Position numbers and translations under genes: made by a program. This document shows, in pieces, positions 36,766 to 52,879 of a stretch of DNA of 64,000 nt (the first letter of the stretch is position 1; every line of letters begins with the position of its first letter). The notes below the pieces were generated by a model, which searched no databases, was not told the origin of the DNA, and saw nothing but the letters and a program-made list of their open reading frames with translations. The stretch is from Octopus vulgaris (taxonomy: Eukaryota): contig OX597817.1 of the NCBI GenBank assembly GCA_951406725.2, forward strand, positions 160,828,001 to 160,892,000. The letters run 5' to 3'.

Positions 36766-36912
36766 GGTAACAAGACTGACCATCCTCCTTCCCCTAAATT
36801 TCAGACCTTGTTCCTTTTGTAGAGAGGATAATTATTAAGGTGGTGAGCTGGCAGAATCTTTAGCATACCAGGTGAAATGCTTAGTAATATTTCGTCTGTC
36901 TTTACATTCTGA

Positions 36913-37421
36913 TACAGTTCTGTATTTGAGAGATGAGGAATTATTTACATTATTTACATTTGACAGATATTTGTCCTCAACTTGTTTGTTGTTAACACAT
37001 TTCGGCTGAAATACCCTCCTGCCTTCATCAGGTGTCTTGGGGAAATTTCGAACCTGGGTTCTCATTTCTAAGGTATTTTTCAATATGTTGTTGTTATTAA
37101 TTATTATTATTATTATTCGGGTGACAGCCTGGCATCAAACTCAGAATCTTGGGGTTAGTAGCCTGTGCTCTTAACCACTATGCCCATGGGCATATGGCAT
37201 AGTGGTTAAGAGCCTGGGCTACTAACCCCAAGATTCCAAGCGGTGACCTGAATAATAATAATAATAATAATAACATTGAAAAATACCTTAGGAATGAGAA
37301 CCCAGGTTCCAAATTTCCCCGAGACACCTGATGAAGGCGGGAGAGTATATCAGTTGAAACGTTGTGTTAACAACAATCAAGATGAGGACAAATATCCATC
37401 AAATGTAAATAATAGAAATAA
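36913..37421. mobile_element. Palindromic element: two head-to-head units of tRNA-like head + (AAT)n + hammerhead ribozyme; 12-bp TSD
   Basis: Arms are reverse complements about a centre near 37185; TSD tttacattctga at 36901-36912 and 37422-37433; interrupts a family B SINE. Confidence 0.85.
37322..37368 (+). ncRNA. Minimal type I hammerhead ribozyme motif
   Basis: AGACAC-CUGAUGA-a-stemII-GAAA-CGUU-GUGUU; stem I GACAC/GUGUU; palindromic AACGUU helix III; stem II partly decayed in this copy. Confidence 0.7.
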
Positions 37422-39714
37422 TTTACATTCTGAGTTCAAATTCCCTGGAGCTTGACTGCCTTTTATCCTTTTTGGGTCAGTAAAATAAGTACCAGTTGAG
37501 CACTGGGGTCAATGTAATCAATGTATCCCTTCCCTTGAATTACTGACCTTATGCCAAAATTCACAATCATTGATATTATTATTATTATTATTGAAGTGAC
37601 AAACTGGCAGAATTGTTAGCATGCCAGACAAAATGCTTTTGTGGTATTTCACCCATCTTTACATTCTGAGTTCAAATATCTCTGAATTCATCCCAAATTC
37701 AAATTCATCCTTTTGGGATCGATGAAATAAATACCAGTCAAACACTAGAACTGATGTAATCAACTAGCCTTCATCTCTTGTAGAAAGGATTATTATTATT
37801 AATGAAGTGGTGAACTGGCAGAATTATTAGCATGCTGAGCAAAATGCTTAGTGACATTTTATCCATCTTTATGTCCTGAGTTCAAATTCCACTGAGGTCA
37901 ATTTTGCCTTTTATCTTTTGGGGGCTCGATAAATTAAGTACCAGTCAAGTACTGGGGTCAATGTAATCGATTATCCCTCTCCCCCAAAATTCAGGCCTTG
38001 TCCCTATAATAGAAAGAACTATTATTATTATTGTCAGAATGGTGGATAGGCTGAATCATTGGGGCATTAGAAAATTGCTTTGCAGTATTCCTTCTGGCTC
38101 TTTACATTCTGAGTTCAAATCCTATCAAGGACAGTTTTGCCTCTCTTCCCACCAAGGTCAATAAAACAAAGTACCAGTTAAGTCCCTGTCTTCATGGCAT
38201 CCGCTGGCCCTTTTCTTTCAAAATTACTGACCTTGTGCCTAAATGCGAAATGATTATTATTGCCAGAATCGGTAGTGCATTGAAAAAATGTTTCGTGGTA
38301 TTTGTTCTGGTTCTTTAGGCTCCGATTTCAAATCCCACCAAGGTTAACTATGCCTCTCATCTGTTTGGGGTCAATAAAGTACTTGTCAAGTGTGTGTGGT
38401 GGTGGTGTTGGTGGTGGGCCAGTTCTTACTCTTTCCTTTCAAAACATCAGGACTTGTGTCTTAAGCAGAAATAATGTTATTATTGCCAGCTGGATTACAG
38501 AACCCTGTAAAATATTGGTTCCTTTTGATTAGGTACCAAAACAGATGGGACCATTTTAAAAAATTATGGAAGAAAAATAAATTCCACTAAGTTGATTTAC
38601 CATGAGAAGTGAGTGATTTAATGTTTTGGACAGTTGTCCTTCTTCAGAGAAAATTTAAAAAACCTTAATATCTTGTGAGGAGAGGGGCTTGGAAGAGCTA
38701 GTGTGTGTAGTGATGGAGGAGTAGTCAAAGCTTGTATCAAGAGCAAGGTCAGTTGAAACGAGGGAGATAGAGCAGACTAGGTCAAGTAAGATAGATGACT
38801 ATGAAAGAAGCGATTGGCAAAAGGCAACACTTTTGGTATGACTGAGGCTGGTAGTGGATCTCTTCTGTTCGTTGTACATTGCTACCAGTGTAACAAAAGG
38901 TTCTCCTCTACCTTTTCTGATCTTTTCACCAACACTTTATATCACTCACCCCGTATCTGATCCATATACTTCAGGACCCATTCTTCTGCCACTACCAACA
39001 CCTCTTCACCTATCTGGTCGCCTATGTACAAATGGCTACATTGGGCCAATCAATTGTGCTTAGAACAGTCTACCTTCATTCTCTTCTCCTAAACTACCTG
39101 CTATTTACTCTATTTCACTCTGTCCACCACCATACTCTTGCCCTTCCCTCTTCCTGGCTGTCTATCATTGCCTTATCTCATTCAGCCTTCTCGGTCACGT
39201 TGCCTTGAACATACACACCTATCTCAGAAAACCTATCGTTCGGTCCCGTGTCAGAAATCCTTTGCATCTCAATCATTCATGCTAGAAATAGTTGCTGAAC
39301 AAGCAGGCGTGGAGTTGTGAGGCCATATCGAGGACATGATTGCCGCTCTAGCCATAGTCTCACGAAAAAATTATTCTGAACATTTTGTAAAGTGTGAAGT
39401 TGTGAGGACTGTTTAGTCTTTTCGAGGACGTGACATCTCTCGAATACCACGAAAAAAATAAAGCATCCAAACGCACTCAGTAAAGAGGTTGATTTTAGGG
39501 CATCCAGTCGTAGAAACCAAACCGGGTGGGTTGAGGTCCCCGACATATCTAGGTGAGATTACGTACTAACACCGACCATGACGACACGTCTAACCTATGC
39601 CAGTATGGAAAGTGGATGTTTGGTCATGATGCTCACGCAAGCAAGAAGAGAGATGGAATGAGGTCAGAACACGTGAATGTGACGAGGTTGGGTATATCTG
39701 AGGGCCAGGGAAGT

Positions 39715-46300: not shown

Positions 46301-48244
46301 ATACTATACACTTCGGATGGTATACCCACTCTATTGACAGCTATACAAGTGCATCTTTTCCCTGACTTATGAACCGTTAGACGACTTACTTACGTGTGTA
46401 TACAATATATATATATACATATAGTATAGTGTCACTGCGGCTTATGGAAACGCAGACAGGCCAGGAGAGGGAATATCGAACTAACCGAAACGTCCGTGAT
46501 AGTGACAACGATTGAAGACGGTGACAATCATAAAGATTATGCGAATGCTATGTAACTGAAATTCTTTACCTTATTTTTCCACATTTGCGGCACATATTTA
46601 TGAACAAGATGTCCGAATTCATGGTTCAAAATGCTTTCTGAATGACCGTATGGATCACCTGGAGAACACATGACATTTTCAGCAAGAACACAAGCCCTGG
46701 TGTTGGTCAGCCCAGCGATGGACTGCCATTTCCGACCGTCAAAGGTACACGTGACTGAACATTTACCCGAACATCTGTCTATAAAAACAAGGATAAAATA
46801 ATGAACAATGGAAAATGAAAAAGCATTATCGAACGCATAGACAACAAAAGTGTCTTAATATAAGAAATTTACTATGGTTTAATTGTTAGTTTAAGTTTAT
46901 TAAATGGAATAAGTTTGTCTGCCGTAAGAAGAATGGAATTGTAATGGTTCTTTGTTAGAGGAGAGGTATTGTTCTTGGTCAGATCTACCGGTCAAGGCAG
47001 AGTATGCATCTGCAAATGTATGCCGAGATTTGAACAGGATTTTTTTAAAGACAATATCAATTACCCAAGCGACAACACAGCTGACTTCATGATTTCGTTC
47101 ACTAAGCTACATTACTTTATGGAGTGCATTTTAAAATTTACTGTACGTATTTTAATATGATTTTATGTGCTTTTAACGGTTTTCTAGTGATTTTACGATT
47201 CTAATATTTGAGGCGGACAGACGTAAAGTCGGGTAAAATGACTTAACTTGATTTCTATTTTTCCATAAATTATTTTTGAAAGCCGACGTATAATCGAGAA
47301 CGACTTAAATGGAAACGACTTAAGCCAAGGTATGCCAGTGTATATATAATTCTATATTTAAGAGATGAGGAATTATGTACATTATTTACATTTGACGGGT
47401 ATTTGTCCTCATCTTGTTTGTTGTTAACACAATGTTTCGACTGATATACCCTCCAGCCTTCATCAGATGTCTTGGAGAAATTTCTAACCTGGATTCTCAT
47501 TCCTAAGGTATTTTTCGATGCTATTATTATTATTGAGTGAGAGAGCAGCGCATGCCATCAAAGTGACCCTGGGATAAAATATACGAAGCCCAGTATACCC
47601 ATCATGACTACCCGTCTGATAAGGGTATACCAGGCACATGCATCACAACCATATATGCGCAACATGGTGAACTCATATCAAGATAAACAGCGCATGACCT
47701 TGCAGGTGGGGCCCAGTTAGAATTTTCTTCTGGTCGAGTAGCCCATCCCACTCAAAAGGTCCCTGAATAAAGATTGTTTAAGGATATTGAACGAAACATC
47801 CATGTTTCCAAAGGTGAATTATCCAAACTTCTAATAATTCCTTTCACCACACGGCTATGATGCTCCCCCACTACTTCAGCTCGTGATCAGAGATGCACAT
47901 ATCATCAGCCACTAAGGGACATGCTCAACTGGTTTAGGTCAAACAACTGACAAGCAAATCTGTGGTATTGAGCAGAATATTTGCTGTAGCCCATCTTTTA
48001 TACCAAGACAAAACAATGTACATGATAATACTTCCAAACAGTTATATTATTATTATTATTATTATTGTTGTTGTTGTTGTTGTTGTTGCTGTTGCTATTA
48101 ATTATTATCTTCGGGTTAGTAGCCCACGCTCTTAACCACTTCGTCATATGCCATATGCCCAGGGGCATATGGCATATGACGTAGTAGTTAAGAGCACGGG
48201 CTACTAATCCCAAGATTCCGAGTTCAACTCTAGGCAGTGACCTG

Positions 48245-48312
<68 letters not shown>

Positions 48313-48749
48313 CAACAACAACACCGAAAAATACCTTAGGAATGAGATGCCAGGTTCGAAATTTCCCCAAGATACCTGATGAAGGCTGGAGGGTATATCA
48401 GCCGAAATGTTGCGTTAACAACTACTTCTTCTACTTGAAGAAGAATCTCCCAGATAATGTGTAATCTTTCGAGTGAACTTTCGTTATTTTTCCCTCTATA
48501 CCGACGTGTAATATTTTCGAGTATACATTATCTGGGAGACTCTTCTTAAAGTAGAAGAAATAGCTAAATTCTTGGGCTGCTATTTCTAAAAGTTCGGTGT
48601 GTGGTAAAGCAATTTTTTGCTGAACCCTATTATATAAAATAATGTTTAAATTTACCGTTAAATGGTCCTTTTACATACTGAACACTGCTTGGTAAAATTA
48701 TTAATTACTAATTAATTAATTAATTTTACCCATATTATTATTATTGACA

Positions 48750-50776: not shown

Positions 50777-52768
50777 GAAGAAGAAGAAGAAGAAGAAGAA
50801 GAAGAAGAAGAAGAAGAAGAAGACGACTCAGTTTTGCCAATGTAATTTCAAAACGTTCTATATACAAAAAAAAAAGAGGATGGTCATGGCTGGAATACCT
50901 TTGATCATAGGTCTTTTCAATCAGAGCTAACCTGAGAGTAAACAATTACTAAAACCTTTCTCTTAATATGCATGATATTGAACCTAAGCTCTTTGCTATG
51001 ATCTGTACTAAATACCTTTAGATGTACAAAGAGTTACAATGAACTCTCTATCTCGTGGCCTATAGTAGCGAGCCTCCTGCTATGAATAACATTACGATTC
51101 CATTGTTGCTGTAACCCATGCCTAAGAGCTTCTCGCTTTGACTTCTAGTCTCAACTCGTAGTCATGACTTTTAAACCGTGGCACTTGCGACTAACTAGCA
51201 TTCGATGTTTCGTCCTAAATAAGCTTTGCAATTGATTTTCCTATCTTATAAACTTCAGTACCAGACCAAATGACCGGTTAGCTTGGGATCAGAAGTGGCA
51301 CAGATTTCTGGATTTTCCGGTTTCTGGAGACAGTTAAAATGTAAAATAAACTATGAGCAAAGAGCTAAATTGTTATTATAGTTGCAAATTAATACACCCC
51401 TAAAGCCGGGTCTATTTGATATCGATTAATCCACTTAAAATATATCATACTATTGGGTTGTCCGGAAAGTTCGTGCCGATTTATAGTAGCTTACCTTTCG
51501 ACTTATTTTAGAACATGGTTGAGTCCATAAAATAGGATTTGACTACACCTCCATTTAGAGCACAGTTTATGCTTTCTTTTCGTGGAAGAAGGGTTATGTT
51601 CCTATAACCTGTGTTAATTCTGTAACCCTTTAAAATGGAAGATAAGAAGGTTCATTTTCGGCACTTGATGCTTTGGGAACCAGACGGAAATTGCAGCAGC
51701 TCGGCTGGGATGTGTTACTCCACCCTCCATATTCACCAGATATTGCTACTTCGGATTTCCACTTATTCAGGTCTCTGCAGAATAGTCTAAATGGTAAACA
51801 TTTCAATTCCTTGGATGACGTAAAAAGATACCTTGATGAATTCTTTGCCATGAAACCACCTCAATTCTGGGAAGATGGTATTTTCAAGTTAAAGGAAAGA
51901 TGGAGATGCATTGTGCAACAAAATGGTTCATATTTGGTTGATTAAAAATGTAATGGCAAGTATTTATTGACCTTTTTCTTTACTTTAAAAATCGGCACTA
52001 AATTTCCGGACAACCCAATATATATTGGTGCTACTTTAGCGTGCGGCCTACTGCCATATCCTGTCTACTCTGTGAAATTACGTTTTAGCGTGCGATCTGC
52101 CTTTTCTTACCTTCTTAACCTGAGATAATTTAAAATTAAATTTAACCATTACAATGCTGTTAAAGGATTTCTATAGACGTATAATTTTTACAGAGGAAAC
52201 AGCAGTTGCATTTTTACAAGAAAACAATCTTCTGGATACATCACAAGAAGCAAACCCTTGTCATCAATGTGGTAGCGTCATGCAAGAAAAAACGAAAACG
52301 TGACAGGAGCACAGGCTATTGAGAGATCATAGTTGGATTCCAAAACACCTATTTTAAAGAAAATGAGAGGCGTTAATAGTGAACTTTTTCAGTCACACTT
52401 TGATCGCTTTTGCTGGAAAGTTTTGAGAAGAGATGCAGCAGATTTGTTTGCGGCATTCCAAAATGATGTACAAAGTGTGTATCGTTAATTAAGATTTAAG
52501 TGTAAGCTATTAATAAATCGAACAGTTGTATACGGCCAACTTAACGTGACAGTCCCATAAAGGGAATCACACCACCGCTATTTAGCCCTAGGAAGCATCA
52601 ACGCTTCCTGTCGGCCTTGACATATTTCCTGTGTCCTTATGGTTACAAATGGGAGACAAGCACCCCCATCCAGCTAAGCCTGCATCCAGAGACATGTTTC
52701 TGAGTATTTGCTCGTCATCAGTCTGGAGTAGCATGGCCTGCTAGCTGAAGATACCTGTCTAGACTGTA

Positions 52769-52802
<34 letters not shown>

Positions 52803-52848
52803 TACAAAGTCTAGACAGGTATTTTCAGCTAGCGGCCATGCTACTCCA

Positions 52849-52879
<31 letters not shown>

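Follow-up and report, generated by a model that had tools for sequence, protein, structure and literature searches.

The 509 bp palindrome at positions 36913–37421 of the 64,000 nt stretch of Octopus vulgaris DNA that was analysed (the window) consists of two inverted arms that are 81% identical over 508 nt. It is bounded on the left by a 12 bp sequence (36901–36912) that is repeated exactly, on the same strand, on the right (37422–37433), and target site duplications (TSDs) in the family are mostly 11–13 bp long. The insertion splits a plus-strand SINE-like repeat with approximate limits 36836–37574 (repeat families D13–D15); other copies of this host repeat in the window (family D13) hold the 12-mer once. 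An earlier reading of this DNA from its letters alone (the sequence-only reading) had proposed that the palindrome went into another SINE as a single unit, and this is borne out, as are the length, the 12 bp TSD and the one-sided tail when the arms are aligned. The start of the right TSD (37422–37429) resembles the element sequence just past the tail-less end (6/7), which is a possible priming microhomology.

Both arms read outwards from a 10 nt self-complementary element (37182–37191), which is common to them, forms the 5′ end of the unit and lies at the centre of the palindrome. On the right arm (plus strand) there is a tRNA-like head (37188–37250) with an intact A box (37195–37205) and a deleted B box, an (AAT)n tract (37251–37274), the ATG that opens the element's reading frame (37294–37296), a minimal type I hammerhead (37323–37368) with a predicted cut after 37363, and a 3′ end of the tail-less class (37369–37421). 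The left arm (minus strand) has the same arrangement: a head (37118–37185) with a short deletion in the A box (37175–37185) and a changed B box (37131–37142), an (AAT)n tract (37087–37117), the ATG (37063–37065), a damaged hammerhead (36994–37036) and a tail extension (36913–36940) that is homologous to the ORF codons following the pseudo-LTR in full-length copies. The tail is found on the left arm only and measures 28 nt here and 34 nt in the family. The head and hammerhead features listed in the sequence-only reading hold for the family but not for this copy, in which boxes and hammerheads are damaged.

The other two of the window's four arms are supplied by a second inverted pair of the same family at about 47350–48422, which has a foreign insertion of approximately 510 bp in its left (AAT)n tract. 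This ~510 bp element (window 47535–48046) has inserted repeatedly in the (AAT)n tract of the family (also in loci L004, L010, L183, L189, L258 and L262). Other breaks in the tract hold sequence resembling the 3′ part of what we take to be a Dong/R4-type LINE.

The 34 nt hammerhead core has 1690 exact matches in the genome and its reversed control has none, so the palindrome family is not a product of chance. Thirty 20 kb stretches at round coordinates (600 kb) contained 8–9 insertions, which extrapolates to approximately 40,000 insertions per genome (2.8 Gb; interval about 16,000–74,000 for 8 events). Sequencing runs of five organisms contain 0.44–0.63 of the words of a long copy, and one contig of organism D joins the end of the ORF to the head. 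A single-protein scan of metagenome contigs and an alignment scan of viral contigs gave no matches. PLE-type ORFs occur in bacterial MAG records (L472–L476), probably as eukaryotic contamination.

The unit is part of an autonomous Penelope-like element (PLE). One of the first 30 loci, L005, has an endonuclease-like frame just upstream of the head, and 29 of the 30 loci anchored on the endonuclease (one of the 30 being the query) run into the head and/or the hammerhead; the autonomous PLEs sharing the unit, for which the sequence-only reading had proposed a search, were thereby found. A reverse transcriptase (RT) lies upstream of the endonuclease-like region: RVT_1 scores above the cut-off in two copies, and in L036 the RT is present in three in-frame pieces. 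Compared with PLE-like proteins, among them a full-length one of 847 aa, the ORF shows 51–69% identity. Pfam gives no direct GIY-YIG match to the endonuclease region of the family; the thumb-to-endonuclease region aligns to a GIY-YIG-positive PLE of the same genome (E 4e-11, the GIY-YIG match of that PLE being itself weak), and the pattern Y..C..C..Y.GET..R..EH..DH is visible in the C-terminal region. The linker between RT and endonuclease has no Zn finger; where the L066 element has a cysteine-bearing linker, the alignment shows a gap of 34 aa. Absence of this finger separates Penelope/Poseidon from Neptune/Nematis (10.1101/2021.04.23.441226), and the cysteine-free linker points to the Penelope/Poseidon type. 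L066 itself (G000:C1:90010001-90020000) holds two inverted copies of another PLE family with frames of 584 and 753 aa, an RVT_1 match and weak GIY-YIG matches, and looks young.

At the other end of the ORF, copies anchored on the ORF start have the same tail and hammerhead in front, and two of these 30 loci (L256 and L267) also have the head, at which the copies begin. In L282 a 219 aa frame links the (AAT)n tract to the ORF, with no stop across the ATG, hammerhead and tail in between. Full-length homologues, compared as proteins (about 54% identity), start with the peptide TPD(D/E)G...(P/S)KR(C/R)V, and the hammerhead core encodes the same peptide. The order head, (AAT)n, ATG, hammerhead, tail is found both before and after the ORF with the RT and the putative GIY-YIG-type endonuclease, in a structure pieced together from separate loci rather than read from a single intact full-length copy. 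Over the region they share, the majority base is identical in long and short copies except at two repeat-count positions; the two kinds are similarly diverged (about 4% at non-CpG and 20% at CpG sites) and no diagnostic column separates them. Eight internally deleted copies (L285, L289, L290, L293, L296, L298, L299 and L300) consist of a pseudo-LTR, 200–460 nt of ORF start and another pseudo-LTR. In two of them the junction is a short microhomology with the 3′ strand of the hammerhead, and L285 joins directly at the head start.

We examined 158 insertions, taken from 113 hammerhead-anchored loci, 27 head-anchored loci, the sample and the window, after removal of duplicates (6 among the hammerhead-anchored and 3 among the head-anchored loci). 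There are 88 simple head-to-head pairs, 62 single arms (some of them halves of interrupted pairs) and 8 insertions with a tandem (head-to-tail) pair. Among the 71 pairs with both outer ends intact, exactly one tail is present in 64, none in 5 and two in 2. A TSD was found in 44 of these 71 pairs (mode 12 bp) compared with 4 of 346 mismatched flank pairs. The 3′ ends fall into two classes, 34 nt apart, both in reads and in the genome. Most pairs are asymmetric. Both arms reach the head in only 10 of the 88 pairs and one arm does so in 42; a near-perfect palindrome is therefore a minority outcome, and the palindrome is not a fixed element. The arms of a pair share 24 derived changes, in comparison with 7.6 for random pairings (maximum 16 in 500). 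This small excess fits a common template or later conversion.

A DNA MITE was considered and rejected, as in the sequence-only reading: the outer ends are unequal, the centre is variable and the TSDs are 11–13 bp, as opposed to fixed terminal inverted repeats and a 2–4 bp target. A retrozyme was also rejected, with a tandem pair in 8 of the 158 insertions and 5 of 215 arm starts near the hammerhead cut. The combination of an inverted pair, a single 34 nt tail, an 11–13 bp TSD and a minimal hammerhead is a set of known PLE traits. Mobilisation of the Penelope type, which the sequence-only reading had inferred, is supported. Taken together, the data make it nearly certain that two pseudo-LTRs of an abundant autonomous PLE, set back to back and since decayed, form the palindrome at 36913–37421, and the palindrome and its double hammerhead are ordinary products of PLE integration.

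The signature matches those described for other PLEs; here and below, the comparisons draw on excerpts of the papers cited. It corresponds to that of Pen2a_Av of Adineta (PMC3846280) and to the general PLE scheme, and also to the behaviour of PAc, which primes at two internal sites and cleaves both strands (PMC11167929). With Poseidon_Ac of the green anole (PMC11167929), Pen2a_Av (PMC3846280) and D. virilis Penelope (PMC2377424), the octopus family shares a single ORF with an RT and a putative C-terminal endonuclease, a pseudo-LTR that contains the ORF start and the hammerhead and is expected to contain the promoter, an inverted 5′-truncated partner with a short TSD, and an optional 31–34 bp tail from two internal priming sites. 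Unlike those elements as described there, most octopus insertions are solo pseudo-LTR pairs.

By analogy with the biochemistry of anole PAc (PMC11167929), the PLE protein would nick both target strands about 12 bp apart, and each nick would prime reverse transcription, at two sites within the RNA that are 34 nt from one another, giving one tailed and one tail-less arm. These sites also occur approximately 240–275 nt from the 5′ end of the RNA, and priming there would give short copies that run off at the transcription start; a separate SINE RNA would not be needed for them. RNAs started from 3′ or solo pseudo-LTRs would yield the same short product. The two cDNAs would then join by microhomology. 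In the window palindrome both cDNAs would have reached the 5′ end and met at the 10 nt self-complementary element.

The minimal PLE hammerhead of metazoa is described as having a 5 bp helix I, an extra base between positions 9 and 10.1, G10.1-C11.1 and a palindromic, loopless 15.2–16.2, with low cleavage in vitro (Cervera and de la Pena 2014, PMC4209133). The family majority motif has the core, helices I and II, the extra base at 9/10.1 and the palindromic 15.2–16.2. It does not differ from the published motif in the features given there, being known here from sequence, and the assignment to the minimal type I class made earlier is upheld. Fully intact hammerheads are present in 12 of 89 non-anchor copies and in none of the four window arms. 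The right hammerhead keeps its core, but stem II has one mismatch and two wobbles (−3.1 kcal/mol compared with −12.2 in a near-master copy); in the left one C15.2, the cleavage triplet and the 3′ strand of stem I are lost or disrupted.

Rfam calls no hammerhead, and ARAGORN no tRNA, in the window or in near-master copies, so that neither the Infernal-type nor the tRNA-gene check proposed in the sequence-only reading returned a call. A motif descriptor and alignment to host tRNAs were used in their place for the hammerhead and the head, respectively. Applied to 40 related PLEs with post-ORF sequence, the descriptor gave 13 sense matches, no antisense matches and none in 20 shuffles. Core and stems had been expected to be better conserved than the flanks; within the family core mismatches are 30/910 (3.3%) and flank mismatches 292/6884 (4.2%), with no compensatory pairs in the stems. 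The expectation thus fails within the family, as it should for neutrally decaying copies, which make this comparison uninformative. The motif is supported across families by the matches in 13 of 40 relatives rather than by conservation within this one.

Each arm does hold the motif, so that a hammerhead on both strands stands as an observation, but it is a by-product of inverted integration and both motifs are damaged. Pairs of hammerheads on opposite strands, 100–700 bp apart, have been reported in Schistosoma (PMC4209133, in part). A cis hammerhead dimer within the palindrome can be set aside: the motifs are on opposite strands, and in read-through RNA of either strand the core is predicted to pair with the other arm in a long hairpin. 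Arms seldom start at the predicted cut: 5 of 215 starts come within a few bases of it, and the hammerhead does not set the ends of most insertions. Read ends at the cut site, another proposed check, show no pile-up in three fragmented RNA libraries, a type of library that reveals such ends unreliably. Cleavage by the hammerhead is predicted to be weak, or to need a dimer or the help of protein.

A second, unrelated hammerhead family is present in the window at 52600–52852. The motif is of canonical type I and lies on the minus strand, with its core at about 52696–52721, a 6 bp stem I, a 2 nt palindromic loop III in two variants and a GUC triplet. Its unit is approximately 330 nt, appears tandem or circularly permuted in a retrozyme-like manner and has at least 40 copies in the genome at 91–95%. 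In the window it also forms a small palindrome around (AT)n.

The head is related to tRNA. Aligned to 30 host tRNA loci, it is closest to Arg(TCG) (46/73, z 8.7), with Ala and Thr close behind, which supports the earlier description of it as tRNA-like. In the majority head a consensus A box is followed 34 nt further on by a consensus B box; the cloverleaf no longer pairs. With a tRNA profile, 22 of 30 copies of the family and none of 40 related PLEs score. Mismatch among copies is 7.2% in the A box, 2.5% in the B box and 6.0% elsewhere in the head; the two boxes are thus no better kept than their surroundings within the head, and neutral decay predicts the same either way.

Most arms that reach the head stop at its edge. 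Seventy-eight of the 87 arms that reach model position 327 stop within 313–327 and 9 extend further, giving a stop rate of about 6% per nt in this interval compared with 0.1–1.4% in the bins from 328 to 447. In this count arms at locus edges were dropped, and starts at 290–312 without the upstream motif were reassigned to 314 as palindromic overrun. The 5′ starts are spread over 313–323 and are blurred by microhomology at inverted junctions. A bump of arm starts at 388–402 coincides with the (AAT)n tract, where insertions account for it at least in part. Consistent with the edge, 22 of 30 head-anchored loci start at the head, 4 upstream and 4 downstream, and exact 21-mer matches, uncorrected for mutability, number 4006 within the head as opposed to 1029 just upstream. 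The same start is seen in single, in tandem and in ORF-bearing copies (L019, L021, L124, L256 and L267). RNase P processing was rejected as the source of the edge: the acceptor stem, by inspection, does not pair. From the pile-up of 5′ ends we conclude that the RNA very probably starts at the head.

The pile-up lies 13–14 nt before the consensus A box and the consensus B box is 34 nt beyond, a geometry known from type-2 RNA polymerase III (Pol III) promoters. The start site would be set by the A and B boxes. Our main reading, to which we give a probability of roughly 60%, is that the RNA of the element begins at a promoter of tRNA origin and that Pol III is probably the enzyme reading it. Bidirectional transcription, which had been suggested for this locus, is unlikely for this copy because both of its promoters are damaged.

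Runs of T were counted as a further line of evidence. The 2669 nt majority sequence (depth at least 25) contains no run of four or more T but 31 such runs of A. Shuffling of 791 codons gives an expectation of 3.1 T runs (P 0.025); G runs are likewise absent (expected 1.1, P 0.30), and under first- and second-order Markov nulls the absence of T runs arises in 6.6% and 25.5% of cases, respectively. Four natural open frames of the family hold 2 T runs (expected 7.7) and twelve frames of other retroelements in the same loci hold 43 (expected 36.4); this comparison leaves out one non-coding repeat and two own-family frames that include other DNA (4 vs 2.6 and 4 vs 3.3). Across 83 related PLEs there are 692 T runs where 597 are expected, with single copies of the relatives being set against the majority sequence of the family. 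Four of these relatives lack T runs altogether, the expectation being at most 1.7 in each, and counts almost as low as that of the octopus family occur in two others (1 vs 3.1 and 1 vs 4.8). The lack of T runs is suggestive only.

Three raw RNA runs of organism B gave 9992, 7541 and 6845 reads on one long copy, equal in both directions, with 66–71% running on into unrelated sequence and no pile-up of starts or ends. These reads fit read-through of many copies and say nothing about the promoter.

The strongest competing explanation, which we consider possible although clearly less probable than a Pol III start, keeps the same PLE but takes the head to be the relic of a captured tRNA or SINE at whose edge Pol II happens to start, the lack of T runs being due to chance or strand bias. 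A Pol II start within such a relic would yield the same pile-up. This would agree with the internal, TATA-less, LINE-like promoter at the corresponding place in the pseudo-LTR of D. virilis Penelope (PMC2377424, in part) and with the TATA/Inr-like motifs of Adineta pLTRs (PMC3846280, in part), with the look of the head and (AAT)n as a simple SINE, with the loss of cloverleaf pairing and with the weakening of the T-run signal under the Markov nulls. Against it, the spacing of the pile-up, A box and B box is that of a type-2 Pol III promoter, and no free head-only family was seen among the 30 head-anchored loci; in the 7 of these loci that have no hammerhead match within 1.5 kb downstream, the break is at or just after the (AAT)n tract.

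The model favoured in the sequence-only reading was that of a SINE/retrozyme hybrid, non-autonomous but independent in having a master of its own, which a PLE would mobilise in trans and whose 3′ end would be borrowed from that PLE. Short copies are about 4- to 10-fold more numerous than ORF-linked ones, the excess of changes shared by paired arms would allow several source loci, and transcription and copying in trans would be possible for short copies whose boxes are intact. The unit is nevertheless not a separate SINE, because the head, (AAT)n tract, hammerhead and tail all lie in the pseudo-LTR of the autonomous element, the whole unit standing at both of its ends. In addition, short and long copies are similarly diverged with no diagnostic column between them, tandem pairs are rare, and arm starts seldom fall near the hammerhead cut, unlike in retrozyme circles. 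As a statement about origin the hybrid is largely refuted, and we consider it improbable.

Fold-back of the cDNA, or a pause of the RT, at the 10 nt self-complementary element of a longer RNA is very improbable as the source of the pile-up: the window palindrome is centred on that element, and self-priming at palindromic junctions has been proposed for Adineta PLEs (PMC3846280, in part), but copies that are single, tandem or ORF-bearing begin at the head too, most pairs are asymmetric, and a 4 bp stem with a 2 nt loop is weak.

The tRNA-like A/B-box head at the start of a PLE pseudo-LTR is the unusual part of the family, and we have found no description of one. The PLE papers compared give, in the parts consulted, LINE-type or TATA/Inr Pol II motifs, and in the literature covered, mostly outside subscription journals, no tRNA-derived promoter is described in a PLE pseudo-LTR. 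Likewise, no hammerhead family is described there in octopus or another cephalopod, Repbase and Dfam entries lying outside this comparison. Two papers on octopus repeats (PMC13282606 and PMC8967140) list Penelope and SINE classes and name no ribozymes in the main text seen.

The nearest parallel is with the TRIMp3 elements Cassandra, Helenus and Ajax, non-autonomous LTR elements of 0.3–1.3 kb (Kojima 2024, PMC10886601). Both have a promoter derived from a small RNA in the terminal repeat, a Pol III promoter in TRIMp3 and a putative one in the octopus family, with the boxes kept and the RNA structure lost. The octopus family differs in being a PLE and in having the head in a protein-coding element; the autonomous partners of TRIMp3 are expected to use Pol II (PMC10886601, in part). 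tRNA-derived SINEs (PMC5786205) also have a tRNA head, internal A and B boxes and short, high-copy insertions; unlike theirs, as described in that source, the octopus 3′ part is not borrowed from a LINE, and head and tail belong to one autonomous PLE. An independent SINE2 lineage would have a head that its autonomous partner lacks; in the octopus family the ORF-bearing element has the head at each of its ends. Animal non-LTR retrozymes (PMC7229834; 10.64898/2026.07.22.740005) are likewise short type I hammerhead repeats related to PLE pseudo-LTRs. In the accounts given there, they form head-to-tail arrays that give circular RNA, in contrast with the octopus family, where inverted pairs and single arms predominate, the 3′ ends are fixed and the 5′ end is probably set by the head and not by the ribozyme.

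tRNA-like 5′ ends have reportedly been noted in Ingi/Vingi LINEs as well.

The point of interest is a tRNA-type promoter at the start of an autonomous PLE. In retroelements, Pol III promoters are described for non-coding passengers such as SINEs and TRIMp3, and autonomous partners are expected to need Pol II (PMC10886601, in the text available). With their sharp edge at the 5′ side and two fixed positions at the 3′ side, the octopus insertions are a genomic read-out of the twin internal priming seen with PAc in vitro. Should the head drive the full-length RNA, translation would have to proceed from a Pol III transcript. In the fullest form of this idea, which we hold to be doubtful, the whole autonomous PLE of approximately 2.9 kb would be transcribed by Pol III from the captured tRNA promoter, with terminators purged and translation independent of a cap, and would shed tens of thousands of SINE-like copies of its 5′ end; the hammerhead may perhaps help cap-free translation (cf. 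PMC13725137). If the head drives transcription, one element would be both its own LINE-equivalent and its own SINE, and this would provide a route for the birth of PLE-dependent SINEs.
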